Notes under the pieces: model-generated
Told to the model about the DNA's origin: nothing
What the model saw: only the letters and a program-made list of their open reading frames with translations
Database searches by the model: none
Source of the DNA: an uncultured bacterium
GTDB lineage: Bacteria > Cyanobacteriota > Vampirovibrionia > Gastranaerophilales > JAILCC01
Length of the DNA stretch: 64,000 nt
Direction: 5' to 3'
Assembly: GCA_949283935.1 (NCBI GenBank)
Contig: CASDUJ010000021.1
Coordinates: 107,627 to 171,626 of the forward strand
Made by a program: the position numbers and the translations under genes
Shown here: positions 1 to 55,828 of the stretch, in pieces
How positions within the stretch are numbered: position 1 is the stretch's first letter
How the letters are laid out: each line of letters starts with the position of its first letter

Positions 1-402
1 AATGTACGAGCTGGAACTTTTGTTGCAAAACAATTGGTTAAATCAAGCGATATACGTTTGAAAAATGTTATTTCTAATTTTAACAAAGGTATAGATTCAA
101 TATTGAAAGTTGACCCTGTTGAATATACATTAAAAGATGATGCGAAGCAAATACATCATGTAGGTGTCATTGCTCAAGATTTGCGGAAAATTTTTCCGGA
201 GGCAGTTATTGTTAACAGAGCAACAGGTTATCTTATGGTTTCCCAAGAACCTGTATTTTATGCTTTATTAAATTCTATAAAAGAGTTGAATTCAAACAAC
301 ATAAATTTGGAAAAAGAGAATAAAAAATTAGAAGAAAAAATTGCTAACCTAAAAATAATAAGAGATAAGCTAAAAAAAACTTCTAGTGGAGGAGATTTAT
401 GA
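1..402 (+). CDS. 3' end of a fibre-like protein ending in a Peptidase S74 (endosialidase-type intramolecular chaperone) domain; 5' end lies outside the window
   Basis: Frame 1 is open from base 1. SSDIRLKNVI...HVGVIAQDL..FPEAV...LLNSIKEL plus a coiled-coil tail matches the S74 signature (SDxRxK Ser-Lys dyad, GxIAQ). The stop overlaps the next start (ATGA at 399-402). Confidence 0.7.
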   Translation, partial: NVRAGTFVAKQLVKSSDIRLKNVISNFNKGIDSILKVDPVEYTLKDDAKQIHHVGVIAQDLRKIFPEAVIVNRATGYLMVSQEPVFYALLNSIKELNSNNINLEKENKKLEEKIANLKIIRDKLKKTSSGGDL

Positions 403-1799
403 AAAAAACACTTAAAACAAATGCCGCATTCTCCCTGATAGAAGCAATGATTATATTGTTGTTGATAAGTATAGCAATAATGGTTTTAATTCCTTTAATT
501 TCGCAAAAAACTACTTTTCCAAGATGGATGCCTATAAAAAATGCTGATAAAATAGAAGCAATAACGTATGGTGATAATTATCTTCAGAGAGTTGGCATCG
601 GTGCAAATGTAACTTCAGAAACTAACCCTGATGGAAATTCAGCAAGTGTTACTACTAATATTTCTCCTTTCGTAAACCAAAGTAAATTTTTGTCTAAAAA
701 TATTGCAATTAACCCGAACAACAACATTGGTGTACTTTTAGGAGATAAATATGAACAATTTAAATATACTACCACTAATTATTTGCCAAATAATTCTATA
801 CAATTAGGTATGAATACTTGTATGAGTGCTCCTTCCAATTCAATTATTTTGAGAAGCTTAAATGCTCCAAGAGAATGTTCTGACCGTATTCGAATAGGTA
901 GCGTAGATAATTGGGGAGGTATTACACTTGATAACACTGAAAAATTTACGTTAGGTACAGAAAAATATCAGATTGTGGAAATTAGTAATAATAATTTCAA
1001 CATTAAATTTCCGAATGGTAATAAGGCGATTTCTTATGCAACTGATAGCGATACGCTTACAATTGGTGATGGCTCTACTACTTCATTAATTCCTAATGGT
1101 TCAGGTGCTACTTTATTTTTGTCTGCATCTAATATGTCTTATCCTGATAGATATAATTGTATTTGCGACATTTATTATTATGATGACTGCATTGGTAATG
1201 AATATGATGAGCAGGGGAAATGTATTACGGGAAATTCTGGGTATGTTTTTGCTGGAACAGAGAACAATAAAGATTTGTCATATGCAGAAAGCAATTCATT
1301 CAGAAATGTTAACACTAATACCAAAAAATGTACTTGCTCTTGCGCTGATGATGCTGGCGGAGTTTGTGTGGCTTGCCAATCATTAGGATATATTTTTGCT
1401 GTTGACAATTCTGGCAGTGTTAACGAAACTTATTGTAAAGCTACTTATGGACAATCTTCTCCGGGTCTTTGGAATAGTTCTGATAGACGTTTAAAAAATA
1501 TTATTTCTAAGTACAAAAAGGGTTTTGATTCTCTAAAAAATGTAGATTCTTATTTGTATACATTTAAAAGTGATAAAGAAAACAAAATACATGTAGGATT
1601 GATTGCTCAAAAAATTATTGGCATTTTTGATGAAGCACTTTCAAAAGACGAAGATGGTTTTTATAGTTATGAAAAATCTCCAATTTTATACGCTATGATA
1701 AATTCTGTAAAAGAAATTTATTATAATCAAACAAAAATAAATCAAAAACAAAAAAAATTGAACAAAGAAGCTGACAAATTAATAAGGATGTATGAATGA
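399..1799 (+). CDS. prepilin-type N-terminal leader + Asn/Gly/Thr-rich fibre-like body + C-terminal Peptidase S74 intramolecular chaperone domain
   Basis: The N-terminus MKKTLKTNAA/FSLIEAMIILLLISIAIMVL is a class III (type IV pilin) signal with Glu at +5. The C-terminus SSDRRLKNII...HVGLIAQKI...MINSVKEIY plus coiled coil is the S74 signature. ATGA overlaps at both ends. Confidence 0.75.
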   Translation: MKKTLKTNAAFSLIEAMIILLLISIAIMVLIPLISQKTTFPRWMPIKNADKIEAITYGDNYLQRVGIGANVTSETNPDGNSASVTTNISPFVNQSKFLSKNIAINPNNNIGVLLGDKYEQFKYTTTNYLPNNSIQLGMNTCMSAPSNSIILRSLNAPRECSDRIRIGSVDNWGGITLDNTEKFTLGTEKYQIVEISNNNFNIKFPNGNKAISYATDSDTLTIGDGSTTSLIPNGSGATLFLSASNMSYPDRYNCICDIYYYDDCIGNEYDEQGKCITGNSGYVFAGTENNKDLSYAESNSFRNVNTNTKKCTCSCADDAGGVCVACQSLGYIFAVDNSGSVNETYCKATYGQSSPGLWNSSDRRLKNIISKYKKGFDSLKNVDSYLYTFKSDKENKIHVGLIAQKIIGIFDEALSKDEDGFYSYEKSPILYAMINSVKEIYYNQTKINQKQKKLNKEADKLIRMYE

Positions 1800-2695
1800 A
1801 AAAAGGTTTTTCTCTTATTGAAATATTACAAACTGTGATTTTGTTAGGTATTATAGCTGGATTGTCTATATCTTTTTTCAAAAGATTAAATAATGATGAT
1901 AAATTAGCATCTCAAACTATATCTTTGTTAAATGAAGCAGTAGAAGAAGCTGGTCGACAAATATGTAGTGATGCTACTCCAGCTTGTAATAATGGTGATG
2001 ATACTTTAATGAGAGGGGTTCAAGCTGCAGATAATGTAGATACTAAATATTGTGGCTTTTTGATGGACGTATTTACCACAGTTGCTGGCAAAATCAAATA
2101 TAATACTAATACAGGTTATTGTGAATATGAATTAGATAACGATACTACTCCTTGCGAAATTTATACAATTAACAATACTAGTTATATGGTGTTTGAAAAA
2201 AAACAAGATGACCCTAAAGTTTGTTATATTACTCCTTATTGCGGATATCTTGAACCTTCTGTTCCAGTTAGTAATATAATTTGCAAGAATGGTGTGCCTG
2301 ATTATAGTGTGCAAAGAATTGCTGGTATAACAGAAATTTGTAGACGCTTAAATGAATTAGTTAATCATAAAATACAAGGTGGGTCTGAAAGTATTGATTT
2401 GATCACCACTTGTAATTCTGATGTACATGAATGTTTTAAGAATAATACATGTAAAGATTTAGCAGGGAATTATTCCACTAATACTAGTATGATACTTCCT
2501 AATGGAGTAAGATTATATAATTTAGGTAGTAAATTTAATGACGGTGATTCAGTATTTGTGTACATAAAATATGATAGAATTGATGACATAAAAACTGCTG
2601 ATGTCACTTCAGATACATCCAAATTAAAAAAATACACTACATATGAATATAAAATTGTAAATCCCGCAGGTGTTGGAGATGTAAATAGTCCATAA
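1796..2695 (+). CDS. type IV pilin/pseudopilin-like protein with Cys-rich globular part
   Basis: MKKG/FSLIEILQTVILLGIIAGLSISFF is the canonical G/FxLIE prepilin cleavage-methylation motif followed by a hydrophobic helix. There are 12 Cys in the remainder and no S74 module. Confidence 0.7.
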   Translation: MKKGFSLIEILQTVILLGIIAGLSISFFKRLNNDDKLASQTISLLNEAVEEAGRQICSDATPACNNGDDTLMRGVQAADNVDTKYCGFLMDVFTTVAGKIKYNTNTGYCEYELDNDTTPCEIYTINNTSYMVFEKKQDDPKVCYITPYCGYLEPSVPVSNIICKNGVPDYSVQRIAGITEICRRLNELVNHKIQGGSESIDLITTCNSDVHECFKNNTCKDLAGNYSTNTSMILPNGVRLYNLGSKFNDGDSVFVYIKYDRIDDIKTADVTSDTSKLKKYTTYEYKIVNPAGVGDVNSP

Positions 2696-2699
2696 AATT

Positions 2700-3197
2700 A
2701 TGAATGAATTTTTAATACTTTTTATACTCAAAATAAAAGTTTCAAATATATATGAAATAAAAAAATTCATAGATACAAATTTTGCACCTTTTATGCAAAT
2801 AAGTTCAGGAGCTATAATTCCTACATTAAAACGTCTTGAAGACAATGATTTTATTCAAAGCGAAAAATTAATTTCAAAAGGTGGTTTGCGAAAAAGTTTT
2901 TATTCTATTTCTCAAAAAGGTGAGGATTTATTTAATAGTTTGCTTTTATTTTCTTCAACTTCTTCTCCTCAAATTTTCAGAAAAGAATTAGATGTTTTGT
3001 TTATGATTGTTAATTCAAAAATTTTAACAGACGAACAAAATTTGTTACTAAAAGAAAAAATATACAATATATTAAATGTGAGTATTTCAATTTTAAAAAA
3101 GACAATGTCAGATAATCCACTTAACTTGCAATATCTTCAATTAGAACTTGATTATATGAACAAAAAACTTGATTTATTAAATTTTTCTCAAAACTAA
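2700..3197 (+). CDS. PadR-like winged-helix transcriptional regulator
   Basis: IYEIKKFIDTNF...ISSGAIIPTLKRLEDNDFIQSEK resembles the PadR recognition helix/wing (G.iYP.LkRLE..G.I). It starts 5 nt after the pilin-like gene. Confidence 0.5.
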   Translation: MNEFLILFILKIKVSNIYEIKKFIDTNFAPFMQISSGAIIPTLKRLEDNDFIQSEKLISKGGLRKSFYSISQKGEDLFNSLLLFSSTSSPQIFRKELDVLFMIVNSKILTDEQNLLLKEKIYNILNVSISILKKTMSDNPLNLQYLQLELDYMNKKLDLLNFSQN

Positions 3198-5896: not shown

Positions 5897-6967
5897 ATGA
5901 CAAAAATTTTAATTGTTTATGATGACAAAACAAATTTAAAAATTCTGGATGCTATATTAAATGAAACTGGTTATACTATTTTAAGTGTAAATAATTTTAA
6001 TTTATTTATAGAAACTATAAAAAATGAAATGCCGGATATTATAATACTTAATAAAAGCATATTGGATATTAATACTATTAAATTTTTCAACGAAATTAAT
6101 TCGATTAAAAATATAAACAAAATACCTTTCATATTTGTTTGTGAGGTTGCTGATTATAAAACAATTACTGCAGGATATGATTTAGGTGCTGTAGATTATA
6201 TTACAAAACCTTTTATAGCAAAAGAAATTAAAACAAAGCTTGCTATGCATTTAAAAATAAATGAACTACAAAATGAACTGAAAAAGCTTAATAATATAAT
6301 GGAACATAAAGTTGAAGAACAATTTAAACAAATATCTGATACTCAAATGGAAACAATTTTTTCTTTGGCAAAACTTGCTCAATCCAGAGATGATGATACT
6401 GGAAAACATTTGGAAAGAGTACAAAAATATTGTTATGTTTTGGCGAAAGCACTTAGTGAAAACTCTTTGTATTCTAACCAAATAGATGAAAATTTTATTA
6501 AAAATATTTTAAATGCAAGTCCCCTGCATGATATTGGAAAAGTAGGAATCTCCGATTTGATTCTATTAAAGCCAGGTAGATTAACTCACGATGAATTTGA
6601 AATAATGAAAACTCATACTGTAATTGGTTACGAAACATTACAAGAAGTTGATGAAAAATTTGGTAACAATGAATTTATTGCTATGGGGAAAGTGATTGCA
6701 CGTTCACATCACGAAAGATGGGATGGAGCAGGATATCCTGATCATCTAAAAGGTGAAAATATTCCATTACCCGCGAGAATAATGGCAATTGCCGATGTTT
6801 ATGATGCTTTAAGTACAAAAAGAATATACAAAGAGGCTTTACCTTTAAATGTATGTGTAGAAGTTATAAAAGAAAATAGAGGAACACAATTTGATCCTAT
6901 AATTGTTGATAAATTTTTAGAAATTTCTTACCAATTTGCTGAAATTCATGAACAACTAAAAGACTAA
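5897..6967 (+). CDS. response-regulator receiver domain + HD-GYP domain protein (RpfG-like c-di-GMP phosphodiesterase)
   Basis: CheY-like N-terminus (ILIVYDD...DYITKPF). The C-terminal part has HDIGKVG and HHERWDGAGYPDHLKG (HD-GYP). Confidence 0.85.
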   Translation: MTKILIVYDDKTNLKILDAILNETGYTILSVNNFNLFIETIKNEMPDIIILNKSILDINTIKFFNEINSIKNINKIPFIFVCEVADYKTITAGYDLGAVDYITKPFIAKEIKTKLAMHLKINELQNELKKLNNIMEHKVEEQFKQISDTQMETIFSLAKLAQSRDDDTGKHLERVQKYCYVLAKALSENSLYSNQIDENFIKNILNASPLHDIGKVGISDLILLKPGRLTHDEFEIMKTHTVIGYETLQEVDEKFGNNEFIAMGKVIARSHHERWDGAGYPDHLKGENIPLPARIMAIADVYDALSTKRIYKEALPLNVCVEVIKENRGTQFDPIIVDKFLEISYQFAEIHEQLKD

Positions 6968-41129: not shown

Positions 41130-41153
41130 TTTATAAAGTATAGGAGAATAGTG

Positions 41154-42299
41154 ATGAAAAAGTTTTTGGTACTTTTAGTAATACCTATTTTGGTTTTAAG
41201 TTTTGCGTTAAATTCTTTCGCTCAAGAATTTCCTGATGTAAACGAAAACCATTGGGCGTATAAAGAAATTGAAACTTTGGCAAAAGAAGGTGTGGTTGTT
41301 GGATATCCTGATGGTAGTTTCAAAGCAGATTCTTTAGTTGATCGTGCAGAATTTTCTACTATGGTTATAAAGGCATTGGCTCAAGAACATTCTCCCATTA
41401 AAACTGAAATCAAATTTGAAGATGTTCCCTATTCTCATTGGGCATATGATATGATTCAAAGAGCTGTTTATTTTGAGTTAATAGATGGTAACGCTAAAAA
41501 TTTTGATCCTGACGGATATGTTACAAAAGCCCATTCTGTCAGTGTTGCAATAAATGCATTAGAAACAAGGCCAATTACCCCAGCTAAAGCTATGGTAGTT
41601 TTGTCTCAAAATTATACTGATTTTAAAGATATTCCATCTTGGCTTGTAGTGCCTGCAGCAAAAGCAGAAATTCTTGGTATAACTGCTAAGATACCTGGAG
41701 AAGAAAAAGAATTTGCTGCAATGAAAAATGCTACCAGAGCTGAATTAGCTGTTTTAGTCTATAAAATGAGAGAAGAGGCTAAATTAAATCCGAATAAAAA
41801 ATTAGCAGAAGCTATGAAACCTAAAAAAGGAGAAGGCATTGTTATTCCTGAAGCTAAAGTTAAAGGACCTATGGGTATTATTCCTGAAGGAACTTTGCTG
41901 CCTATAGCTCTTGTTGATAAATTAAGTTCTCAAACAAATGAAGAAGGCGAAATTGTTCTTACTACTGCAAACAAGAACTTGATTTCTAAGGAAGGATATA
42001 TTTTATTATTAGAAGGAAGTAATATTGCCGGAGAAATTCAAGAAGTTCTAGTTGGTAGATATTTTGTCAGAAATGGTAAAGTTATTGTTGAAACTAATTT
42101 GATATCTACTCCAATTGGGCAAAAAACAAAATTTGATGGAATTATTGATACTACTCCTAAAAGGAATTGGATTGCCAGAATTTTACGGGCAATATTTAAA
42201 GGTGGTAAAATAAATCTTAAAGCAGGAGATGTAGTTTATGTTAAATTAGACCACCCCTTAAAGATTGATCTTTCTTGCGGATGGATATTTACAAAATGA
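41154..42299 (+). CDS. SLH-domain (three copies) envelope protein with C-terminal beta-rich module
   Basis: Signal peptide then FPDVNENHWAYKEIETLAKEGVVVGYPDGSFKAD...RAEF, FEDVPYSHWAY... and F.DIPSW..., which are S-layer homology repeats. Start set at the ATG at 41154, 7 nt after AGGAG. Confidence 0.8.
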   Translation: MKKFLVLLVIPILVLSFALNSFAQEFPDVNENHWAYKEIETLAKEGVVVGYPDGSFKADSLVDRAEFSTMVIKALAQEHSPIKTEIKFEDVPYSHWAYDMIQRAVYFELIDGNAKNFDPDGYVTKAHSVSVAINALETRPITPAKAMVVLSQNYTDFKDIPSWLVVPAAKAEILGITAKIPGEEKEFAAMKNATRAELAVLVYKMREEAKLNPNKKLAEAMKPKKGEGIVIPEAKVKGPMGIIPEGTLLPIALVDKLSSQTNEEGEIVLTTANKNLISKEGYILLLEGSNIAGEIQEVLVGRYFVRNGKVIVETNLISTPIGQKTKFDGIIDTTPKRNWIARILRAIFKGGKINLKAGDVVYVKLDHPLKIDLSCGWIFTK

Positions 42300-42675: not shown

Positions 42676-43377
42676 TTATCTTAGTCCGACAAATTTTATT
42701 TTTGTTTTTAAAAAATCAATTATTTTTTTAAAATCTTCAGGAGAGTATGATTTTTCGTCTGTTAATGATTTGTTGTAAATTTTTGATGCAATAAATTTTT
42801 GTAGATAATATTTTTCTGCTCCTTCAATTAATTCACCAATTCTTTTTAAATCTTCAAATGAAAGTTGAGAGGAGATTACTGTTGTTCTAAATTCATATTT
42901 TATTCCACTTTGCATAATAAGTTTTATGCTTTTTTTTATGTCTGATTCTTTTATTATTGTTCCTGTTATTTTATGATATTTTTCAAGTGGAGCTTTTATG
43001 TCCATAGCTATGTAATCAATAAGATGTTCTTTAATTAATTTCTCTAGTTTCTTAGGAAATGTTCCGTTTGTATCCAATTTTACAAAAAATCCTTGCTCTT
43101 TTATCTTTTTAATAAATGCGGCTAAATCATTTTGAATACAAGGTTCTCCTCCTGTAATAACTACTCCATCAAGTTTTCCTTGTCTTGTTTTTAAAAAATC
43201 AAAAAAAGCCGGCGCAGTAATCTGCGCCGATGTATTAATATTTAAATTTAACAGTTCCGGATTGTGACAGTAGCCACATCTAAAATTACAACCTTGAGTA
43301 AATATTATCGCAGAAATTTTCTCAGGATAATCAAGCAAAGATGATTTTTGTAGTCCGCCTATTAGCATACTTTGCAA
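42676..43377 (-). CDS. nrdG: anaerobic ribonucleoside-triphosphate reductase activating protein
   Basis: Radical SAM motif CNFRCGYCHNPE and GVVITGGEP. Overlaps the 3' end of nrdD. Confidence 0.85.
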   Translation of the reverse strand: MQSMLIGGLQKSSLLDYPEKISAIIFTQGCNFRCGYCHNPELLNLNINTSAQITAPAFFDFLKTRQGKLDGVVITGGEPCIQNDLAAFIKKIKEQGFFVKLDTNGTFPKKLEKLIKEHLIDYIAMDIKAPLEKYHKITGTIIKESDIKKSIKLIMQSGIKYEFRTTVISSQLSFEDLKRIGELIEGAEKYYLQKFIASKIYNKSLTDEKSYSPEDFKKIIDFLKTKIKFVGLR

Positions 43378-45485
43378 TCTTCTTGTATTTTGAATGTTTT
43401 TCTCGTTTTAAATTCTGCTTGTTTGCCTTTATTCCATTGATTTACAGGTCTAATATATCCAACAATTCTGGAGTATACTTCACATTCTTCTCCACAATCT
43501 GGGCAAGTATTATGCTCCCCTGCTATATATCCATGATTAGGACAAGTACTAAATGTAGGAGAAAATGTAAAATAAGGTAAATGATAATTACTACAAACTT
43601 TTTTTACTAGATTTTTCATAGTTTCATTGTCTGAAATCCTTTCGCCTGCAAATATATGAACTACAGTACCGCCGGTATATTTTGTTTGTAAATCATCTTG
43701 ATGATCTAGTAATTCAAATATATCATCTGTATAATTTACTGGTAATTGAGTTGAATTACTGTAATAAGGCGATGCACCTTTTTCATAGTATTCTTTATCA
43801 TTTGAACATATAATTCCCGTGTAGTTTTCTTTATCTAGTTTTGCAAGACGGTAGCTTGTTCCTTCTGCAGGTGTTGCTTCCAAATTATAATTGTTGCCGG
43901 TTTCTTTTTGGAAGTCTACTATTATCCTTCTCATATAATTCATAACTTCTATGGCAAAACTATGTCCTTCCTGACTTGCTATATCTTTTCCTAATAAATT
44001 TAGACATGCTTCATTCATTCCTATTAATCCAATTGTAGAAAAATGATTTTTCCAATATATTCCGAAACGATTTTTTATATCTCTCAAATAAAATTTTGTG
44101 TAAGGATACAAATTATTATCAGTTAATCTTTCTAGGAGTTTTCTTTTTATTTCTAGAGAATTTTTCGCTATTTCCATCCTTTCTTTTAAAAGACTAAAAA
44201 ATTCTTTTTTGGAATTTGCAATGTATGCTATTTGCGGTAAATTAATAGTAACTACCCCTATAGAACCTGTAAGTGGGTTGGAGCCAAATAAACCTCCTCC
44301 TCTATATTCTAATTCTCTATTGTCTATTCTTAATCTGCAGCACATTGATCTTGCATCTTCGGGATTCATGTCAGAATTAATGAAGTTCGAAAAATATGGA
44401 ATTCCGTATTTTGCACTCATTTCCCAAAGTCCTTTAAGATTTTCATTATCCCAATCAAAGTTTTTTGTTATGTTGTATGTTGGAATTGGAAATGTAAAAA
44501 CTCTTCCTGAATTATCTCCTTGCATCATTACTTCAAAAAATGCTTTATTTATCATATCCATTTCCTTTTGGAATTCTTCATATGTTTCTTCCATTATTTC
44601 TCCACCTATTATTACGTTTTGTTTTGCGTAATAACTTGGTACTGTCAAATCCATTGTAATATTAGAAAATGGTGTTTGAAATCCTACTCTTGTCGGTATG
44701 TTCATATTAAAGACAAATTCTTGTAAAGCTTGTTTTACTTGTTTGTAATCTAAATTATCGTATCTTACAAATGGTGCAAGTAGTGTATCAAAATTTGAAA
44801 ATGCTTGGGCTCCTGCGCTTTCTCCTTGCATTGTGTACAAAAAATTTGCCATTTGTCCTAATGCTGTTCTGAAATGTTTGGGAGGTGCGCTTTCAACTTT
44901 ACCTTTTACTCCAGTAAATCCTTCAATAAGTAAATCTTTTAGATCCCATCCTACACAATAAACCGATATAATATTTAAATCGTGAATATGTATGGCACCT
45001 GATTGGTGGGCATTTTTTATTTCTGCAGGGTAAATTTTATTGAGCCAATAATTTTTGCTAATGTTTGATGCAATGTAGTTATTTAAACCTTGAATAGAAT
45101 ATGACATGTTAGAATTTTCATTTATTTGCCAATCTAGTTGTTTTAAATATTCATCTACCATAGTTATGTTCGCATTTTGTGTAAAATCACGAAGTTTGTT
45201 ATGTTGATCCCTGTATAAAATGTATGATTTTGCTGTTGCTTTATAATCTGAAGATAATAATACTTGCTCTACTGCATCTTGAATTTCTTCAATTGTTGGT
45301 GCTTTTAAGTTTGATTCTTTTGTTTTTACAAGTTTTTCAACAATTTTTACAACATCTTTTGTTAATTTCGTTGCAGTTTGAGTGTCAAATTCTTTTGTTA
45401 CCTCTGATGCTTTTTTTATTGCATCAGTAATTTTTGCAGAGTTAAAATCTACAATAACTCCGTCTCTCTTTAATACTTTTTCCAT
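43362..45485 (-). CDS. nrdD: anaerobic ribonucleoside-triphosphate reductase (class III)
   Basis: N-terminal ATP-cone (VLKRDGVIVDFNSAKI), a C-terminal Zn site CPNHG...CPDCG and the glycyl-radical motif SRIVGYIRPV. Start set at the ATG at 45485 (GGAG RBS). The longer tracked ORF runs into the leader RNA. Confidence 0.9.
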   Translation of the reverse strand: MEKVLKRDGVIVDFNSAKITDAIKKASEVTKEFDTQTATKLTKDVVKIVEKLVKTKESNLKAPTIEEIQDAVEQVLLSSDYKATAKSYILYRDQHNKLRDFTQNANITMVDEYLKQLDWQINENSNMSYSIQGLNNYIASNISKNYWLNKIYPAEIKNAHQSGAIHIHDLNIISVYCVGWDLKDLLIEGFTGVKGKVESAPPKHFRTALGQMANFLYTMQGESAGAQAFSNFDTLLAPFVRYDNLDYKQVKQALQEFVFNMNIPTRVGFQTPFSNITMDLTVPSYYAKQNVIIGGEIMEETYEEFQKEMDMINKAFFEVMMQGDNSGRVFTFPIPTYNITKNFDWDNENLKGLWEMSAKYGIPYFSNFINSDMNPEDARSMCCRLRIDNRELEYRGGGLFGSNPLTGSIGVVTINLPQIAYIANSKKEFFSLLKERMEIAKNSLEIKRKLLERLTDNNLYPYTKFYLRDIKNRFGIYWKNHFSTIGLIGMNEACLNLLGKDIASQEGHSFAIEVMNYMRRIIVDFQKETGNNYNLEATPAEGTSYRLAKLDKENYTGIICSNDKEYYEKGASPYYSNSTQLPVNYTDDIFELLDHQDDLQTKYTGGTVVHIFAGERISDNETMKNLVKKVCSNYHLPYFTFSPTFSTCPNHGYIAGEHNTCPDCGEECEVYSRIVGYIRPVNQWNKGKQAEFKTRKTFKIQEDCKVC

Positions 45486-45519
45486 AAACAAATCTCCTAG
45501 TCTCGTAGCTAATTTACTT

Positions 45520-45592
45520 CCAAACATGGTATTCCGACTTTTACGGCTGCGGACCAGTGAGGGACTTTCACCCATGCTTTCCACATGTTTGT
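45520..45592 (-). promoter_or_regulatory. compact cobalamin (B12) riboswitch-like aptamer in the nrdD leader
   Basis: The minus-strand RNA reads AAACAUGUGGAAAGCAUGGGUGAAAGUCCCUCACUGGUCCGCAGCCGUAAAAGUCGGAAUACCAUGUUUGG. It contains GGUGAAAGUCC, CUGGUCCGCAGCCGUAA (compare btuB CGCAGCGGUAA) and a B12-box-like AGUCGGAAUACC. A closing helix forms between AAACAUG and CAUGUUU. A candidate promoter TTTACA-17-TAAAAT (45627-45599) would start transcription at its 5' edge. Confidence 0.6.
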
Positions 45593-47030: not shown

Positions 47031-47435
47031 ATGAATTTAAAAAAAATTTTCCCTTCTACTTTTACTTTACTAATAATTCTGTTGTTCCATATTTCGCGAA
47101 TTGAATTTTTGAAATTATATCCTATTTTAGCTAATTTATTTATTTTTTTGCTTTTCTTTTCCTCTTTATTTCGAAAAGAAACTATTATACAGAAAATAGC
47201 AAAACAATGTGAAAGAAAAGAATTGGATGAATTCACCAAAAATTATACAAGAAAACTGACTTATGTTTGGTCTTGTTTTTTGGCAGTTAATGTATTTTTT
47301 GCTTTCATTACAACTTTTATGTCTGACGAAATCTGGATGTTGTATAATGGATTTATTTCTTATGTTCTTATAGGAATATTTTTTTTAGTAGAATATATTG
47401 TAAGAATAATATTGCGGAAAAGGGATAAAGTATAA
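47031..47435 (+). CDS. small integral membrane protein (ApeG/COG4648-like position)
   Basis: 134 aa with three or four hydrophobic helices. It sits between the ACP pair and the adenylating enzyme, as in aryl-polyene-type clusters. Confidence 0.55.
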   Translation: MNLKKIFPSTFTLLIILLFHISRIEFLKLYPILANLFIFLLFFSSLFRKETIIQKIAKQCERKELDEFTKNYTRKLTYVWSCFLAVNVFFAFITTFMSDEIWMLYNGFISYVLIGIFFLVEYIVRIILRKRDKV

Positions 47436-47440
47436 TATAT

Positions 47441-49075
47441 ATGTGTATTTTTGATTTGTTTTTATCACCTGAAAATGATAATAATATTGCTTTAAGAACT
47501 TCTTTTGGTGATTTAACTTTAAAAGAAGTAAAACAATATATTTTAAAAAGAAAAGAAGAATTTGAAAACAAAAAAATAAAAAACGTCGTTTTACTTGGTG
47601 AAAATCATTTTGATTTTATAATAAATTTTTGGGCTGCAATTTTTGCGGAGAAAAATTTATATTTAATTACAGATTCAAAAAGGTTATCTTGTCTAACAAT
47701 AGAACATATTTTGCCTGAAAAAATTACCGAAAAAGCTGAGAAACTTTCTAAATTTAAAATTCCCAATTTATCTGAAGTTAATTTCTTTACATCTGGTTCT
47801 ACAGGAATTCCTAAACTAATAAAAAAAAATTGGGAAGTTATTTTAAAAGAAGGAATTGATACGTATGATGAATTTCAATCTTTTTGGCCCAAAAGTCCTT
47901 TGGTGTTTACTACTTCAACCCCTGCACACATGTTTGTTTTGACTTTTTACGTTTTGTTATCTTTTTTAAAAAATTTTATTATAGATACTCGAAAAATTGA
48001 ATTTCCTGAACAACTTGAAGAACGTCTAAGGGATAACAGTATATTGGTGACTTCTCCATCTTTTTTAGAAACCTTACAAAAATATAATGTAAAGTTAAAT
48101 ATTGACAAATTATTAATTTTTTCTGCTGGAAATAAACTTCCGAAATCCACACATGAATATTTTGAAAATCAGAAAATTAATATAATAGATATTTATGGTT
48201 CTACAGAAACAGGTAATATTGCTTTTAAGGCTGTATCTACAGACAAATATCTTACTAAGTTTCGTAAAGTCAATTTGTATTTGAAAGAAAATTCTTTGGT
48301 AGTAAATTCTCCATTTTTTCTTGAAAATGAAATTTGTTTGTCTGATCAAGCTGAAATTCTGGATGAAAATCATTTTATTTTGCGAGGCAGAATTGATAGA
48401 CTTGTAAAAATTACAGAAAAAAGAGTTTCATTAATTGAGTTGGAAGAAAATTTAGCAAAATGTAAATTTGTTAAAAATTCTTATTGCTTTGAATATTCTA
48501 AAAAGCTTTGTGTGGCTATTGTTTTGTCAGATTTAGGTATTAAATATTTTTTAGAGCACGGAATTTTGCAAATAAAAAAAGAATTAAAAAAATATCTTTT
48601 AAATTTTGTTGAAATTGTTCCTTCTCGTTGGAAATTTTTATACGAAATTCCCAAAACAGAAAGAGGAAAAGTTGATATTAACTATTTAAATGAAGTGTTT
48701 TCTACAAAACTTTCTTTACCTTTAGTAACGAAGGTTATTTATTCTGAAAAAATGACTGAAATTGAAATGTTATTTCCTAAAACTTGCAATTTTTTTGAAG
48801 GACATTTCAAAAATTTTCCTATTGTTCCAGGGGTTGTACAACTTTATTTTGCTCAAAAATATATAGAAACTTTTTGTAAAGTAGATATAAAAGTTTGGCA
48901 AATAAAAAGAATTAAATTTTCCAATGTAATTTTGCCAGATACGATTATTAAACTGAGATTGATAAATCAACATAATTTTGTGACTTTTGAATTTTTAAAT
49001 CAAAATGGTGAAATTTACTCTTCAGGAAATTTTACAAAATTCAAACAAAAAATAGAAACGGTGGATAAATTATGA
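47441..49075 (+). CDS. AMP-dependent ligase (acyl-ACP/CoA ligase type) fused to a FabA/FabZ-like hotdog dehydratase
   Basis: Adenylation motifs FFTSGSTGIPKLI, YGSTETG and PKTERGKVD, followed by a C-terminal about 110 aa with FFEGHFKNFPIVPGVVQL (dehydratase His and PGV motif). Confidence 0.75.
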   Translation: MCIFDLFLSPENDNNIALRTSFGDLTLKEVKQYILKRKEEFENKKIKNVVLLGENHFDFIINFWAAIFAEKNLYLITDSKRLSCLTIEHILPEKITEKAEKLSKFKIPNLSEVNFFTSGSTGIPKLIKKNWEVILKEGIDTYDEFQSFWPKSPLVFTTSTPAHMFVLTFYVLLSFLKNFIIDTRKIEFPEQLEERLRDNSILVTSPSFLETLQKYNVKLNIDKLLIFSAGNKLPKSTHEYFENQKINIIDIYGSTETGNIAFKAVSTDKYLTKFRKVNLYLKENSLVVNSPFFLENEICLSDQAEILDENHFILRGRIDRLVKITEKRVSLIELEENLAKCKFVKNSYCFEYSKKLCVAIVLSDLGIKYFLEHGILQIKKELKKYLLNFVEIVPSRWKFLYEIPKTERGKVDINYLNEVFSTKLSLPLVTKVIYSEKMTEIEMLFPKTCNFFEGHFKNFPIVPGVVQLYFAQKYIETFCKVDIKVWQIKRIKFSNVILPDTIIKLRLINQHNFVTFEFLNQNGEIYSSGNFTKFKQKIETVDKL

Positions 49076-49482
49076 ACATATCAGCAACAATAACAAAAGA
49101 TATTCCATTTTATGATTTGGACCCTATGCAAGTGGTTTGGCATGGAAATTACATTAAGTATATGGAAGATGCAAGATGTGCTTTATTGGAAAAGTTAAGC
49201 TATACATATGATGATATGAAAACCGAAAATATTGCTTATCCTGTAGCAAAATTGGAAATAAAGTACATAAAACCTTGCAGATTTGCTCAAAAAATAAATA
49301 TAAAGGCTATATTGAATGAATATGATCCTTGTTTGATAATTTCATATGAAATATATGATGCGAATACCAATGAAAAAATGCTGAAAGCAAAAACCATGCA
49401 GATATGTATAGACATAAAAACTTATACAACAATATACACTCCGCCCAAAAAACTTTTAGAAGGAGTAAAAAACTATGTATAA
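49072..49482 (+). CDS. 4HBT/YbgC-type acyl thioesterase
   Basis: 136 aa with PFYDLDPMQVVWHGNYIKYMEDAR (hotdog thioesterase catalytic Asp region). ATGA overlap with the upstream gene. Confidence 0.7.
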   Translation: MNISATITKDIPFYDLDPMQVVWHGNYIKYMEDARCALLEKLSYTYDDMKTENIAYPVAKLEIKYIKPCRFAQKINIKAILNEYDPCLIISYEIYDANTNEKMLKAKTMQICIDIKTYTTIYTPPKKLLEGVKNYV

Positions 49483-50002
49483 AATTATTTTTTTGATTCT
49501 TATTTTGTTTTTATTTTCACCTAAAGTTTTGGCAGATGTTTTTGATAAGCCATCTAATGTTTCTTCTGTTGTGAAATCTTTACCTGAAATTAAAAATGTG
49601 TCTTGTAAATTTACACAAGAAAAATTTATTGCTAATTCTGCAATGACTTTAAAATCAGGTGGTAATTTTGTTTTTGATAGAAACAATGGAGTAATTTTTG
49701 AAACCTTATACCCTGTTAAATCAACTGTATCTTATAGTTCTAATTCTAACAAACAAATAAACAGAGTAGTAAACTCTATAATAAATAAAAATTATTCAGA
49801 TTTAGAAAAAAATTTCAATATTTATTTTGAAAAAAATTCTCTATTATGGAGCTTAGGTCTTATTCCCAGACGTGAAACTGCTACGGCAGAGGTAATTGAT
49901 AAATTAAAAATATCAGGCAATAGTTATATCAAAACAATTGAAATTAAAACTATTGGAGGAGATATAACAACTCTCAATTTTACATGTTCAGAAAGGCAAT
50001 AA
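49475..50002 (+). CDS. LolA-like periplasmic lipid/lipoprotein carrier
   Basis: Signal peptide MYKIIFLILILFLFSPKVLA/DV, then CKFTQEK.....MTLKSGGNFVFDR..GVIFETLYP, the LolA-family pattern. 175 aa. Confidence 0.6.
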   Translation: MYKIIFLILILFLFSPKVLADVFDKPSNVSSVVKSLPEIKNVSCKFTQEKFIANSAMTLKSGGNFVFDRNNGVIFETLYPVKSTVSYSSNSNKQINRVVNSIINKNYSDLEKNFNIYFEKNSLLWSLGLIPRRETATAEVIDKLKISGNSYIKTIEIKTIGGDITTLNFTCSERQ

Positions 50003-52191
50003 TGGAAAAATTTAATATTTATAAGATTGTATTTGTATTTTGTTTATTCTCTTTAATTCTTGTTGGTTTTTTAAAACATCCAATTATTGAAACTAATATT
50101 TTAAAAGCAATTTTGCCTGATAACGAAAAAAGCTCTGTAATTTTTTATCTAGCCAATAAAAGTTCTGCAAAAATTAATTTTACTGTTGAAGCTTCTAGCA
50201 AAGATCAATTGTTAAAAACTACTTTTGCAATAAAAGATGAAATTAAAAATATGGATATGCCATTTGTTAGACCTAATTTTAAAGAAATTTTCGAATTGTA
50301 TAAAAATTACCCTATTAATTTTTTATCAAGATCATTGAGAAAAGAATTATCCAAAAATAATTTAGATAAATTCGTTATTGAAAAAAAAATTAGTTTATAT
50401 GATCCTTTATACTCTTCTGTTACAATTTTGCCTTTAGCTCAAGATCCTTTTATGTTATTAACTGATTATTTTGCTAATCTTTCTAATGAAAACAATTATT
50501 TGTTTTTTGACAAAGATGATAAATTTTATAGCGTTTTTTCATATTATTTTGACAAAAATTTATCATTATCTCCAGCAAATCTTAATAAACAAATTGAAAA
50601 ATTAATTCGTCTTCAAGATAAATACAATACCAATGAAATCAAAATATACATTTCAGGAGCTCCTGTTCATGCTTATTTTGCGAGTAAAACTTCTGCAAGA
50701 GATATTAATTTTGTTTCTTTGGTTTCTGTATGTTTTGTTTTTTCTTTAATTTTCTATTATTTTAAGTCCTTCAAGCCTATTGTTGCTGTTTCTCTTTCGA
50801 TTTTGTTTGCAATACTGGCTGGGTATGCTATGTCGGCTATTTTTTTTAGTTCCATTCATATATTGACATTTGTTTTTTCTACTTCATTAATTGGAATTTG
50901 CATAGATTATTCTTTGCATTTTTTTGTTGAATACAAAGAAAATGTTTCTCCAACTAAAATTATACATAAAATTTCCAAAAGTCTCACTGTAAGCTTATTT
51001 ACTACTATTTGTGCTTTCGGGATTTTGTTTTTTTCAAAAATCTCTTTGCTTCAACAAATTGCTGTTTTTACTATTACAGGGCTTGTTAGTGTTTACTTAA
51101 TTGTTATTTTATTTTATCCTGTGTTTTTTAAAGGTGCAGTTAACCTAAATGAAGTTACAAAATTTAATTTTTCTATTAGTAAAAACTTTTCTATTTTAAT
51201 ATTTGCATTAGCTGCGTTTATTATGCTAATTGGTTTTCCGATGTTTAAAATAAACAATGATATCACTCTAATGTATAAACCAAACGAAAAATTATTAGTT
51301 GCGGAAAATTTATATAATGTTTTAATGCAAAAAGATACAAAATTTTTACTTGTAAAAAGTTCACGACAAGAAAATTTTCAAAAACACATAGAGTTAGAAG
51401 AATCAATAATTGATAGTATTTTGGAACTTTATCCTGATGCAAAAATTGAAGCTTTTTCTAAATATGTTCCATCTGTTAAAAGACAGACAGAGAATGTAGA
51501 ATTAATATCTAATTTATACAAAAAGAAGCTTTTTGAGTATGCGGATTTTCTAGACATTTCTCAAAAAAAATTGTTGCTGGAAAATATTAAAAATGTCAGT
51601 TTTTTTGTATATAAACCTGAGGAATATAAATTTTTAAATGATTTTTTTGTGAAAAAAAACACGTCTTTAGTTATTCTTGAAAATGTTCCTGATATTTCTA
51701 TTGTAACTAACAATCCCAATATTATTTCTATAAATCTCAAAAAGGATTTATCCGGAATTATAAGTGAGTGCAGTCAAAAATGCTTGAGGCTTATATTGCC
51801 AGCTTTTTTGGTAATGTTATTAGGTTTGACGTTTGTGTTTAATATAAAAAATGCATTGATTCTTGTATTGCCATCTTGTATTGCAAGTTGTCTCACATTA
51901 ATTATTCCTACTTTTTTTCATCAGCAAATAAATTTTTTCCATTTATTATCTGTGTTTTTAATTATTGGTTTTGGAATTGATTATTCTATTTTTAGGTTCA
52001 ATGGCTCGCGTAATGCGGGAGATGCAGTATTTTTGTCAGCTGTTACGACTATTTTTTCTTTTTCTTTGTTAGCTTTTACAGAATTTAAATTGGTCAGTTC
52101 CATTGGATTTGCTTTGGCAGTGGGATTGTTTTTTTCTTATTTGTTTAGTTTTATTGTTATTAGGAAAAATCAAAATGACAAATTGGTATAA
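50002..52191 (+). CDS. MMPL/RND-superfamily exporter
   Basis: Two blocks of about six TM helices, each preceded by a soluble loop. GICIDYSLHF and GFGIDYSIF are MMPL-type motifs. Start set at ATG 50002 (TAATG overlap with the LolA-like gene). Confidence 0.75.
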   Translation: MEKFNIYKIVFVFCLFSLILVGFLKHPIIETNILKAILPDNEKSSVIFYLANKSSAKINFTVEASSKDQLLKTTFAIKDEIKNMDMPFVRPNFKEIFELYKNYPINFLSRSLRKELSKNNLDKFVIEKKISLYDPLYSSVTILPLAQDPFMLLTDYFANLSNENNYLFFDKDDKFYSVFSYYFDKNLSLSPANLNKQIEKLIRLQDKYNTNEIKIYISGAPVHAYFASKTSARDINFVSLVSVCFVFSLIFYYFKSFKPIVAVSLSILFAILAGYAMSAIFFSSIHILTFVFSTSLIGICIDYSLHFFVEYKENVSPTKIIHKISKSLTVSLFTTICAFGILFFSKISLLQQIAVFTITGLVSVYLIVILFYPVFFKGAVNLNEVTKFNFSISKNFSILIFALAAFIMLIGFPMFKINNDITLMYKPNEKLLVAENLYNVLMQKDTKFLLVKSSRQENFQKHIELEESIIDSILELYPDAKIEAFSKYVPSVKRQTENVELISNLYKKKLFEYADFLDISQKKLLLENIKNVSFFVYKPEEYKFLNDFFVKKNTSLVILENVPDISIVTNNPNIISINLKKDLSGIISECSQKCLRLILPAFLVMLLGLTFVFNIKNALILVLPSCIASCLTLIIPTFFHQQINFFHLLSVFLIIGFGIDYSIFRFNGSRNAGDAVFLSAVTTIFSFSLLAFTEFKLVSSIGFALAVGLFFSYLFSFIVIRKNQNDKLV

Positions 52192-53107
52192 TATAAAAGA
52201 ACGTTCGGCTGGCGAATTACGTCTATATATTTTATGGATTATTTACAAATTTTTAGGAAAATTTTGTTTGGATTTTGTCGTTTTTTTTGTTGCTTTTATT
52301 TCCTTTATTTTTGCTAGTGAAATTAGGATGTACTCTGAAAAATATCTTCTTGTTTTATCTGCGTTTACTAAAGCAAAAATAAAACCTTCTTTTTTTAATT
52401 TATTTAAACATTATTTGTCTTACGCTTATTCACTTTCAGATAAGATTGAAATATTTTCTGGTAAATTTAAGTGTGAAAATATTTATTTTGAATCTGATTT
52501 AGATGCTAAAAAACTTTTTAATGATTTTGAACAAAATAAAGGAGTATTTTTTATTTGTAATCATATTGGCAATATTGATGTTATGCGCGCATTTTTGTTT
52601 TCTAGTTTTAAATATTCTAATATGAAAGTTAATGTATTTTTGCAACAAAATCAAACGAAAATTTTTAATGAATTTTTAAAAAAAATTTCTGCTGATACTC
52701 CTATATCAGTTTATCCCGTTGAAAATATTGGTATTGATACGGCTATTGAAATAAAAGAAAAACTTTCAAAAGGTGAAATTGCTTTTATGGCAGGTGATAG
52801 AATTTCGGCACAAAACTCCAATGCTGTATTTGTTGCTGATTTTTTGCAAAAAAAAGTAAAATTTCCGCTGGGAACATTTAAGTTTGCTTTATTGACTGAA
52901 GTACCCATATATTTTGTTTCTTGTCTTAAAACTCGTAAAAATTTTTATAAAATCATTTTAAATAAACCTGCCATTACCTATAAAAATAAAAAGAAAGATT
53001 TATTAATATTACAAAATGATTTTGTGAAATTTTTAGAAAATATTACTGTACAATATCCTTTTCAATTTTATCATTTTTATGATCTGTTTAATGAGGATTA
53101 TATATAG
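52175..53107 (+). CDS. LPLAT-superfamily acyltransferase with N-terminal TM segments
   Basis: FICNHIGNIDV is the HX4D acyltransferase motif, and MAGDR is block III-like. Start set at ATG 52175 (MTNWYNIK), overlapping the MMPL gene end. Confidence 0.65.
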   Translation: MTNWYNIKERSAGELRLYILWIIYKFLGKFCLDFVVFFVAFISFIFASEIRMYSEKYLLVLSAFTKAKIKPSFFNLFKHYLSYAYSLSDKIEIFSGKFKCENIYFESDLDAKKLFNDFEQNKGVFFICNHIGNIDVMRAFLFSSFKYSNMKVNVFLQQNQTKIFNEFLKKISADTPISVYPVENIGIDTAIEIKEKLSKGEIAFMAGDRISAQNSNAVFVADFLQKKVKFPLGTFKFALLTEVPIYFVSCLKTRKNFYKIILNKPAITYKNKKKDLLILQNDFVKFLENITVQYPFQFYHFYDLFNEDYI

Positions 53108-53591
53108 GTTTTCCTGATTTAACATAAGCAAGCAGTATTTGCTTGCATTGCTCTACTTCTATATTACCAGTTACTGAAATTCCTTTTTGTGCAAAAATAT
53201 TTATCCAATTTGGTTTGTAACCTTCATCAAAACTTGTTATCTTTTCTACTTCTTTAGAAGGGAGACCAAAGTATACAGATTTTATCCCTGACCACATAAT
53301 TGCTCCCACACACATAATACAAGGTTCAGCTGTTATACATAGAGAAAAATTGTAAGCTGATAAATCATAGGTATTAAATTTTTTTTGAACTATTCTAATC
53401 ACATTAGTCTCTGCATGATTCAATGCACAGTTGTCATTAACGACACTATTGTGGGCTAATTCAATAATTTCTCCTCTTTGGCCGCAAATTGCTGCAGAAA
53501 ACGGTCCGTAACCTTGTTTTTGGGCCAATAGATTTTTGGCGCATAATTCTTTTATGATTTTGTGGGCATAGTTAATATAATTGTTCTGCAT
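53088..53591 (-). CDS. CMP/dCMP-type zinc deaminase (nucleoside/guanine/tRNA-adenosine deaminase family)
   Basis: HAETNVI and TAEPCIMCVGAI (H-A-E ... PC-x2-C zinc site). Start moved to MQNNYIN (ATG at 53591). Confidence 0.8.
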   Translation of the reverse strand: MQNNYINYAHKIIKELCAKNLLAQKQGYGPFSAAICGQRGEIIELAHNSVVNDNCALNHAETNVIRIVQKKFNTYDLSAYNFSLCITAEPCIMCVGAIMWSGIKSVYFGLPSKEVEKITSFDEGYKPNWINIFAQKGISVTGNIEVEQCKQILLAYVKSGKPIYNPH

Positions 53592-53667
53592 TAGCAATCC
53601 TTCAAATCCTTCCAATATTATACCATATTTTCTTGATTACTTCTCATTTATGTTGTATCTTTTTGTT

Positions 53668-55026
53668 ATGAGAAAAATATTTAGTTTGGTTTTAATAGTA
53701 CTTTTTGCCTTAAGTAATTCAATAAATGCTGCTGATTATTTTACCATGGGAAAAACTGCTTTTGCCCAAAAAAATTACAGACAAGCAAATATTTATTTTG
53801 TGCAGGCTTTGACCCAAGACCCCAATAATGCAAATTGCAGATATTTCTACGCACAAACTTTAACTTATCTAAAAAATTACGAACAAGCTAGAAAAGAATA
53901 TGGTTATGTGATACAGCTTGCGCCTTCTTCTGTTGCCGCCGATTATTCTCAGCAAGCTATCATGTATTTGGATCAAATGTATTTTTCTACTAAACCTAAA
54001 CAAAATTCATCAGATTCTGTTGCTTCTAGCGATAACTATCTAAAAAAAGCTTTAACTTCTAATGGGGAACTTGTTACGTGGGATTTGGATAAAATGCCAT
54101 TAAAAATTTATCTTGATAATTCTTATAGAGTTCAAAATTTTTATATTGATGCGGCTAAAAGTGCTTTAAGTAGTTGGCAACAGGCAAGCGATGGGCTTAT
54201 CAGTTTTGCATATACAGTTGATCCAAATTTAGCTGATGTTAAAATTGTCTTTAAAGGAGTTGCGCAGAAAACTGAAAATCAAATTCTTGGGCTTACTCAA
54301 CATACAAGTAAAAATGGATATATAGACAAAGTACAAGTTACTTTGTATACTTTAGGACCTAATTACAAAATGCTTACTGCGGCAGATGTGTACAATGTTG
54401 CATTGCACGAATTTGGGCATATGCTTGGAATTTGGGGGCATAGTGATTCGAAAAATGACGTAATGTATTCTCTTTATGATGTGCATGGGCAATCTAATAG
54501 AATAAATCTTTCAAATAGTGACAAAAATACAATAAAAGCTTTGTATGAAATTGATAAAAATCCATATTCTACTACTTCAAATTCTATTAATAAAGTATTA
54601 GGAAACAAAGTTGATAGAATGAGTGCAAAGCTTCAGCAAAATTTAGATTATGTAAAATCAGTTCCTGGCAATCCTATAGGTTACATAAATGTTGCTAATA
54701 CATACAAAGCCATGAATAAAGAATATGAGGCAATTTCTTATTATAAAAAAGCTTTGACAATTGATAGGAACAATAAGGATGCTAATTTGGCTTTGGCTAC
54801 TATATATTTTAATCGTAATGATTTAAAAAATGCAGAAATATACTATAAAAATTTGATAAAAATTGAACCTAAAAATCCACATTCATATTGTAATTTAATA
54901 AATCTTTACATTCGTAATAACAAACTTTCGAATGCAAATGCTACACTTTCAAGTTTGCTGTATAGAAATCCTGATGCTAAAAATCAAGATTGCATAAAAT
55001 CAATTATAAAAACATTAGGAAGGTAA
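53668..55026 (+). CDS. secreted TPR-repeat protein with central matrixin-like (metzincin) zinc protease domain
   Basis: Signal peptide MRKIFSLVLIVLFALSNSINA, TPR units at both ends (e.g. NANCRYFYAQTL..., ANTYKAMNKEYEAISYYKKALTID) and a central VALHEFGHMLGIWGHS followed by DVMY (Met-turn-like). Confidence 0.7.
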   Translation: MRKIFSLVLIVLFALSNSINAADYFTMGKTAFAQKNYRQANIYFVQALTQDPNNANCRYFYAQTLTYLKNYEQARKEYGYVIQLAPSSVAADYSQQAIMYLDQMYFSTKPKQNSSDSVASSDNYLKKALTSNGELVTWDLDKMPLKIYLDNSYRVQNFYIDAAKSALSSWQQASDGLISFAYTVDPNLADVKIVFKGVAQKTENQILGLTQHTSKNGYIDKVQVTLYTLGPNYKMLTAADVYNVALHEFGHMLGIWGHSDSKNDVMYSLYDVHGQSNRINLSNSDKNTIKALYEIDKNPYSTTSNSINKVLGNKVDRMSAKLQQNLDYVKSVPGNPIGYINVANTYKAMNKEYEAISYYKKALTIDRNNKDANLALATIYFNRNDLKNAEIYYKNLIKIEPKNPHSYCNLINLYIRNNKLSNANATLSSLLYRNPDAKNQDCIKSIIKTLGR

Positions 55027-55366: not shown

Positions 55367-55828
55367 TTATTTAACTGCTTTTGTTATTTCATTTGTTATG
55401 TCTTCCCCTCCATAGAGAACTATACCTTTGGCTAAAACAATATCAAAGCCTTTAGCTTTTGCTTCCTTTTGAATTACAGTTGATATATCTTTGTCTATTT
55501 CTGCTAATTTTTTTGCGTAATTTTTATCAATTGCTTCTTTTTTGTCATTTAATTGTTTGTTGTACTTGGTTTCTAGTGATTTTCTTTTGTTTACGTCTGT
55601 TTCTTTATCTAAATTAGTTTTTGCTGTCACAACAAATTTTGTCAAATCTTCTATTTGTTTTTTATGTTCTGCTTTTAAATTATTAACAGCCTTAGAGCTT
55701 CCAACAACTTTTTGTACATCTACTGTTGCAATTTTGTAATTTGGCAAAGCGTCAGATACTGCAAAATTGTTTATGGCTAAACCTATTGTTAACGCACATA
55801 TTCCTGTCAAAATTAATTTTCCATTCAT
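55367..55828 (-). CDS. OmpH/Skp-family periplasmic chaperone
   Basis: Signal peptide, then KIATVDVQKVV...S.....L.....K...L, a long charged coiled arm, and a C-terminal G.DIVL......LYGG. About 150 aa. Confidence 0.75.
   Translation of the reverse strand: MNGKLILTGICALTIGLAINNFAVSDALPNYKIATVDVQKVVGSSKAVNNLKAEHKKQIEDLTKFVVTAKTNLDKETDVNKRKSLETKYNKQLNDKKEAIDKNYAKKLAEIDKDISTVIQKEAKAKGFDIVLAKGIVLYGGEDITNEITKAVK

Follow-up and report, generated by a model that had tools for sequence, protein, structure and literature searches.

What does a bacterium build from a protein that begins like a type IV pilin and ends like a phage tail fibre? The question is raised by gene C, located at positions 399–1799 of a 64-kb stretch of DNA (the window; positions 107,627 to 171,626 of contig CASDUJ010000021.1, assembly GCA_949283935.1) from a member of Gastranaerophilales, an uncultured gut lineage that is sister to Cyanobacteria. 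Gene C comes third in a chromosomal operon of five genes, A-B-C-D-PadR, of which the window contains the last four at 1–3197. Gene A and the 5′ part of gene B lie upstream of the window start and were seen on a 103-kb metagenome contig in ENA (L001), found by exact look-up of C. This contig matches the window up to approximately position 29680, holds an identical C, adds gene A and the full gene B, and brings the context covered (window plus 10 kb upstream) to approximately 74 kb. An identical D is recorded on a contig of 184,679 bp, which places the window in a longer assembly from the same organism. We give about an even chance to the reading that A, B, and C are three paralogous, pilin-headed, trimeric fibre adhesins carried on a type IV filament, with D as a conventional pilin-like partner. 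The features of the operon within the window are as follows (amino acids, aa; nucleotides, nt).

1..402, + strand: 3′ end of gene B (frame 1), encoding the last 133 of the 410 residues of the protein
46..207, + strand: Peptidase_S74 domain of B, residues 16–69 of the partial translation; motif SDIRLK with Ser at nt 46–48 and Lys at nt 61–63
399..402, + strand: ATGA stop/start overlap of B and C, with GGAGG 7 nt upstream
399..1799, + strand: gene C, 466 aa, consisting of prepilin head, variable body, S74 domain, and C-terminal helix
399..428, + strand: leader peptide of C, MKKTLKTNAA, basic with Ala as last residue; predicted prepilin-peptidase site A10/F11
429..500, + strand: alpha1N-type hydrophobic helix of C, F11–S34 (containing F1, E5, and P22), from the alignment of 17 homologs and an AlphaFold2 (AF2) helix at 13–34
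501..1478, + strand: variable body of C, rich in N/S/T/G, with 12 Cys, mostly predicted beta strand
1479..1637, + strand: Peptidase_S74 domain of C, motif S361-D-R-R-L-K366 at nt 1479–1496; predicted self-cleavage directly before S361
1674..1793, + strand: C-terminal helix of the chaperone module of C, residues 426–465 (AF2); the end ADKL..Y is conserved among aligned homologs
1796..1799, + strand: ATGA stop/start overlap of C and D
1796..2695, + strand: gene D, 299 aa, pilin-like, MKKG/FSLIEILQTVILLGIIAG, globular part with 12 Cys, without S74
2700..3197, + strand: PadR-family regulator (PF03551, 37.5 bits), last gene of the operon

The C-terminal part of C reads SSDRRLKN...HVGLIAQKI...INSVKEIY, followed by a helical tail, and its body consists to 40% of N, G, T, and S. 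A sequence-only reading made earlier of this DNA had quoted peptides from open reading frames (ORFs) 1–402 and 399–1799, all of which are present in the translations; it had described the middle of C as Asn/Gly/Thr-rich, with VGIGANVT and 12 Cys, and the composition count agrees (VGIGANVT at residue 65). It had also described ATGA-linked genes with a PadR-like gene 5 nt further on; the overlaps are as described, and the spacing is 4 nt (start at 2700, stop codon of D at 2693–2695). Scanning the operon for promoters and terminators gave fewer matches than shuffled sequence and was uninformative in this DNA of 29% GC.

Pilin heads and S74 modules in the same proteins

All four cluster genes, A to D, encode a prepilin-type head. 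Each leader is short and hydrophilic or basic, and the leader/+1 junctions are MIKICKKG/F in A (431 aa, read on L001 as MIKICKKG/FTLAETIMTLFIVGLVVTAAIP), MQKFRA/I in B (start upstream of the window; MQKFRA/ISLIETLISLTIVSIALIALLPVMT, also given as MQKFRA/ISLIETLISLTIVSIALIALLP), MKKTLKTNAA/F in C (N-terminus MKKTLKTNAAFSLIEAMIILLLISIAIMVL), and MKKG/F in D. Class III leaders end in Gly or Ala (PMC10191384). Alignment of 17 C homologs showed A10, F11, S12, L13, E15, and P32 to be invariant, corresponding to −1, F1, S2, L3, E5, and P22 of the head, with the residues at +1 and +5 as in prepilins, where 20–25 mostly hydrophobic residues follow, as they do here. C has a weak match to the N-terminus of ComGC, and N_methyl (PF07963) matches 15 of the 17 C-family members at E ≤ 0.1; one relative, on contig L009, passes the cut-off of that profile (25.7 bits; cut-off, 21.2 bits).

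A profile search of 1.84 billion representative proteins (50% identity clusters) gave 20,457 matches at E ≤ 1e-3, 2,905 at 1e-10, and 213 at 1e-30. The matches of the first homolog search, together with the best 150 of the large profile search, made up 166 proteins that were examined with a head pattern, [GAS][hydrophobic][ST]L.E followed by a hydrophobic stretch, which requires E5 and does not require Pro at +22. The head was present in 150 of the 166 proteins, with Pro at +22 in every one of the 150, Phe at +1 in 148, and Ala (80) or Gly (70) at −1; the other 16 were mostly N-terminally truncated gene calls or one residue off the pattern. The N-terminus is part of the profile, so proteins with the head are by design favoured among the top matches, and the lower-scoring thousands are probably S74-only proteins. 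With A to D all carrying it and Pro +22 kept throughout, the pilin head occurs far beyond chance. The fusion of a prepilin-type N-terminus to a C-terminal S74 domain, as proposed from the letters of C, is real and recurrent. In 137 of the 150 S74-pilins, two basic residues at +26/+27 and a Trp somewhere between +24 and +44 are also conserved in the stem; in C, this motif lies at residues ~36–43 (nt ~504–527) and contains RW, and SPW is found in many relatives.

Peptidase_S74 (PF13884; cut-off, 22 bits) was matched by A (43.6 bits), B (53.9 bits, E 2.2e-14 on the window fragment; 52.0 bits on the full protein), C (38.8 bits, E 1.1e-9, residues 361–413), and all 17 C homologs. ORFs 1–402 and 399–1799 were thus both above the cut-off and share the same C-terminal module, as had been claimed; the third gene of the linked set (1796–2695) has no S74 domain. 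The domain begins 106–148 residues before the C-terminus, behind the body, and is followed by a helical tail, which in C (residues 426–465 of the model) may form a coiled coil. The S-D-x-R-x-K motif is SDERLK in A (at residue 285), SDIRLK in B, and SDRRLK in C, where S361, D362, R364, L365, and K366 are invariant in the 17 homologs. The Ser and Lys five residues apart are what we take to be the S74 catalytic dyad, as are Ser911 and Lys916 of endoNF. In a PDB sequence search, the best solved matches of C were 3gud, 6f45, and 8jov; the first is the released autochaperone chain of phi29 gp12, which starts exactly at the aligned SDERHK, and the cut in C is therefore predicted between S360 and S361.

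Gene D differs from the other three in having no S74 domain. TIGR02532 matches it with 18.6 bits (cut-off, 16.3) and also matches 22 of 22 D-family members. The AF2 model of D (predicted local distance difference test score, pLDDT, 72.8; predicted template modelling score, pTM, 0.70) consists of a helix at 7–57 followed by a beta-containing, Cys-rich domain; the 51 residues of this helix are the canonical length of pilin alpha1. Searching PDB with the D-family profile yielded four matches, all pilins (Geobacter PilA-N, MshA, and PilA among them) and weak (E 0.009–0.34), and Foldseek against PDB found no fold match for the D model (best E 1.9).

Conservation and setting of the A-B-C triad

The A-B-C tandem was found in the window (L001/L002), L006, L007, and L013, and A-B at the cut end of L008, these being metagenome-assembled genome (MAG) or metagenome contigs. 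D follows the triad in the window and L007 and is absent in L006 and L013; PadR follows D in the window and L007 (PF03551, 53.3 bits in the latter). C-family relatives with genomes came from MAGs of Candidatus Gastranaerophilales and from one labelled only 'bacterium', and one D homolog is named Candidatus Gastranaerophilales by NCBI. In L013 (7410–11146), the triad is located at another chromosomal site, beside genes for DHOD-B, a Na/Ala symporter, YidC, and TrmE, which are found at 14–20 kb in the window. Since this site differs, the triad moves as a unit.

The two ends of the proteins are conserved by group. The N-terminal 30 residues showed 64–96% identity within an orthogroup and 23–50% between groups, and the S74 domain plus tail showed 49–67% within and 28–56% between, with group-specific tail lengths past the Ser of 134–148 (A), 117–119 (B), and 106 (C) residues. 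The bodies were only 25–38% identical in every comparison, ortholog or paralog, and their lengths vary independently between genomes (247/257/321, 277/289/231, and 253/315/268 residues). Conserved ends around a fast-evolving middle are the pattern expected of exposed ligand-binding proteins. Comparison of L001 with L002 for strain-level variation gave no information, the two being 99.94% identical.

More distant relatives (P0018–P0033) carry YadA_head repeats (PF05658) between the pilin head and S74; A, B, and C themselves have no PF05658 match at E ≤ 1 and no anchor domain. The genomes of these YadA-head-bearing relatives are close to the window organism, with 75% identity in BipA and 62% in an unusual 743-aa phosphoglucomutase-like protein. 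S74-pilin relatives occur several per genome and in housekeeping contexts, with three within 7 kb in L009. In L012 (10001–13504), an S74-pilin with YadA-head repeats is followed by a ZorA-like gene (precomputed PF28082) and then an OmpA-domain gene; these two might form a stator-like pair, and the PF28082 match was not reproduced by our own Pfam scan at E ≤ 0.001.

The operon itself is surrounded by housekeeping genes. Upstream on L001 are RibD, CoaE, a radical-SAM gene, RibH, a Memo/AMMECR1 gene, and a GntR gene; downstream are SSB, a four-carbon acid sugar kinase-type protein, PdxA, and an HD-GYP response regulator. The sequence-only reading had held that capsid, terminase, or baseplate genes upstream would make C an ordinary prophage fibre; no such gene was found in the approximately 74 kb. 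A scan of IMG/VR with the family profile gave no relatives, and GenBank phages match C only at residues ~304–466 (mostly ~341–466), with 25–31% identity. One homolog is named 'tail fiber domain-containing protein' by NCBI.

Candidate assemblies of A, B, and C

How such proteins would work can be proposed from their domains and from known systems. The N-terminal helix would insert A, B, and C in the inner membrane with the body in the periplasm, and prepilin peptidase would take off the leader after Gly or Ala. The S74 module would join three chains, template folding of the body into a trimeric fibre in the periplasm, and then release itself by a cut directly preceding the Ser of SDxRLK. Once mature, the trimer would have three free pilin stems and could be seated on the tip of a type IV filament or prime it, as proposed for CofB and TcpB, and display the variable adhesin; D would be an accompanying minor pilin, and PadR would regulate the operon. 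We favour three separate homotrimers rather than one A/B/C heterotrimer. A further, joint proposal is more tentative, and we put it somewhat below an even chance: that, in Gastranaerophilales, phage-fibre-like trimers serve as caps or primers of the type IV filaments, A-B-C(-D) replacing the canonical minor-pilin/PilY1 tip complex, and that each such cap is a bare three-stem alpha1N bundle bearing a hypervariable fibre that was folded and then released by the S74 autochaperone.

Several results weigh against the filament-borne fibre. The PF07963 scores of C (13.7 bits), D (15.0), B (17.5), and A (18.8) are all below the cut-off, so that profile support for the prepilin head claimed earlier is divided, with TIGR02532 in favour for D and N_methyl below threshold for ORFs 399–1799 and 1796–2695. 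No pilB, pilC, pilD, pilM, or pilQ was found in the window or the 10 kb upstream, and no pilus machinery genes adjoin the relatives at the loci examined; in favour of the filament-borne fibre, a Gastranaerophilus genome has been reported to encode pilA, pilB, pilC, pilT, and pilD (PMC5877343). The AF2 monomer of C, made from the 17-sequence alignment, had a mean pLDDT of 52 and a pTM of 0.32, only residues 110–225 being moderately confident, and Foldseek against PDB gave no usable fold match (best E 0.46). This model shows a helix at 13–34, beta strands, the S74 region, and then the helix at 426–465; the N-terminal helix has just ~22 residues, without alpha1C or a globular pilin module, which leaves in doubt how C would dock onto a filament and hints that A, B, and C may have only an alpha1N stem. 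Finally, the strict A-B-C triad, in which the conserved stems are distinct, may instead reflect a hetero-oligomer.

A poor monomer model is to be expected if C is an obligate trimer. The 'tail-fibre-like' body of the sequence-only reading, nevertheless, has no structure prediction behind it. Its proposal of a trimeric fibre or adhesin on a type IV filament is still the best reading, with the YadA-head relatives in its favour and with neither pilus machinery nearby nor a predicted fibre structure to add.

The same pilus-free loci and the short stem without a globular module also speak for a membrane anchor only, in which the prepilin-like head serves for export and anchoring, perhaps with cutting by PilD, and the S74-built trimeric fibres never polymerise but remain tethered to the inner membrane or are set free in the envelope. 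The basic pair at +26/+27 directly after the hydrophobic stretch and the many paralogs per genome, such as the three in L009, fit this as well. We nevertheless consider it unlikely. P22 and E5 are tied to filament packing and pilin registration, and the invariance of E5 in the 17 C-family homologs, together with Pro +22 and Phe +1 at the frequencies given above, indicates constraints from filament packing and PilD recognition and not from a plain membrane anchor; because P22 and E5 are invariant, real filament incorporation is favoured over mere anchoring. Moreover, a hypervariable adhesin anchored in the inner membrane would not be exposed in a diderm, and the co-transcribed D resembles a normal pilin.

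Quite unlikely, in our estimate, is a heteromeric tip complex, with an A/B/C heterotrimer formed via S74 and joined by D into a four-pilin priming complex that replaces the HIJK/GspHIJK minor pilins. Pointing to it are the single, translationally coupled copies of A, B, and C in an order kept in the window, L006, L007, and L013 (A-B in L008), the conserved sequence proper to each stem, and the row of four pilin-like genes, as in minor-pilin operons; GspI-J-K is a heterotrimer (PMC8179133). However, the bodies differ in length and vary independently between genomes, and the tail lengths are group-specific, so that A, B, and C fit poorly into one intertwined fibre. D is also absent in two of the loci, L006 and L013. 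The S74 modules characterised so far all build homotrimers, to our knowledge.

The only role we know for S74 domains is that of a folding chaperone that cuts itself, acts for a single turnover, and is discarded once cut. This stands against a pilus-borne peptidase, in which S74 would be an effector protease presented by the pilus, as read by Raynaud et al. (2021), who suggested peptidase activity, and nothing else, for the IPR012902-IPR030392 architecture (PMC8179133). The Ser/Lys dyad is intact, as that reading would have it, but the domain forms the very C-terminus, behind a long variable body, an arrangement shared with phage fibres, and the closest solved relatives are the autochaperones of phi29 gp12 and tail fibres; we regard it as very improbable. 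An ordinary prophage or phage-derived tail fibre with an incidental hydrophobic N-terminus, for which the typical use of S74 in phage fibres and the one NCBI name speak, is refuted and keeps hardly any probability, because the context is housekeeping, IMG/VR holds no relatives, and phage proteins match only the S74 part, and the pilin head is moreover conserved across the family.

Known systems and the rest of the window

The architecture is catalogued and uncharacterised. In the InterPro survey of 'modular pilins' by Raynaud et al. (2021), IPR012902-IPR030392 is the sixth most frequent architecture (29 proteins), and Dataset S1 also lists IPR012902-IPR008640 (YadA head)-IPR030392 (4+3 proteins) (PMC8179133). 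A full-text literature search for S74 plus pilin terms found no other paper linking them. The sequence-only reading had known of no characterised example, which holds, and had asked whether the architecture is a described family, which is so to the extent that it is listed, no member being characterised. Its likely logic, that of a trimerising chaperone and not of an effector, has not been spelled out before. New here are the conserved operon A-B-C(-D)-PadR, a lineage-specific expansion of the family in Gastranaerophilales, the invariance of P22, the conserved ends with variable middle, and the exclusion of a phage origin.

In the modular pilins PilB and PilC of Streptococcus sanguinis, as in A, B, and C, the class III signal peptide and alpha1N lead into a module that has no specific link to pilus biology, and display at the tip is predicted. 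The characterised ones differ in being monomers with a full pilin module and an adhesive domain; in A, B, and C, a self-cleaving trimerisation chaperone is added, the body between stem and S74 would act as the effector, and the low-confidence model shows no evident globular pilin module. CofB and TcpB likewise combine a pilin N-terminus with a beta-rich C-terminal part, and their homotrimer is proposed to initiate assembly at the tip, CofB being a trimeric minor pilin at the pilus tip (PMC10191384, PMC8179133). Unlike C, CofB has a complete pilin domain, its trimer forms without a cleavable chaperone, and its genes lie inside a pilus operon. No pilin was matched by C in PDB sequence searches or Foldseek, and the likeness to CofB/TcpB is functional only.

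Phage tailspikes and fibres (K1F endosialidase, phi29 gp12, and the T5 L-shaped fibre, among others) share with A, B, and C a C-terminal PF13884 domain with SDxRxK after an elongated variable body. They have a virion-attachment N-terminus in place of the pilin stem, whereas the present genes lie on a chromosome and are kept within an order of bacteria, and the identity is that given above for phage proteins. Trimeric autotransporters of the YadA family, which are obligately trimeric, are also variable surface adhesins, and their head repeats recur in the distant relatives of A, B, and C. They differ in their beta-barrel translocator, which A, B, and C lack; trimerisation by S74 and anchoring by a pilin helix would take its place. 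MYRF is a eukaryotic membrane-bound transcription factor that trimerises and cuts itself via an S74-type domain. Its anchor is C-terminal to the domain and the cut frees the functional part, whereas in A, B, and C the anchor is N-terminal and the cut would free only the chaperone.

Should the joint proposal of capped or primed filaments be correct, pilus tips could be built in a way not seen before, by a chimera of pilus biogenesis and phage receptor-binding-protein assembly. Should the filament-borne fibre be correct, a phage trick for folding trimeric fibres would have been recruited to give type IV pili variable adhesins. A pilin stem alone, without a globular domain, could then graft a large trimer onto a filament, and the pilus-borne-peptidase reading of the IPR012902-IPR030392 class would be replaced. 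The A, B, and C proteins would then be concrete candidates for attachment of Gastranaerophilales to host or particles.

Further downstream, the window holds genes for glycine-cleavage P, H, and T proteins, YidC, TrmE, BipA, RecO, NrdD/NrdG, an SLH protein, and OmpH, and its remainder includes an aryl-polyene-like lipid cluster and an M16 peptidase. The 47–55 kb block was considered as a pilus operon and rejected, since it is this lipid cluster; at 47031–53107 (+ strand, ~25% GC) it encodes an AMP-binding + ApeI-dehydratase fusion, a 4HBT thioesterase, a LolA-like protein, an MMPL transporter, and an unannotated 334-aa protein. Exact look-ups of the window proteins at 41151–42296 and 60524–63193 found none on record.

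An SLH-domain protein is encoded at 41151–42299 (+ strand) and an OmpH/Skp homolog at 55367–55828 (− strand). Together, they suggest a diderm envelope whose outer membrane is joined to the cell wall by an SLH-type tether, as in Cyanobacteria. The anaerobic ribonucleotide reductase NrdD and its radical-SAM activase (42676–45584, − strand) are consistent with an obligate anaerobe, and the SLH protein, OmpH, and this reductase together would fit a diderm anaerobe. HD-GYP-type (HD_5) proteins, one of them fused to a response-regulator receiver, are encoded at 5897–6967 (+ strand) and 58552–59535 (− strand), a pair that may hint at cyclic-di-GMP signalling near the adhesin operon. At 53581–55026 (+ strand) is a gene for a secreted-looking protein with tetratricopeptide repeats and a matrixin (M10) metalloprotease domain with the motif HEFGHMLG.

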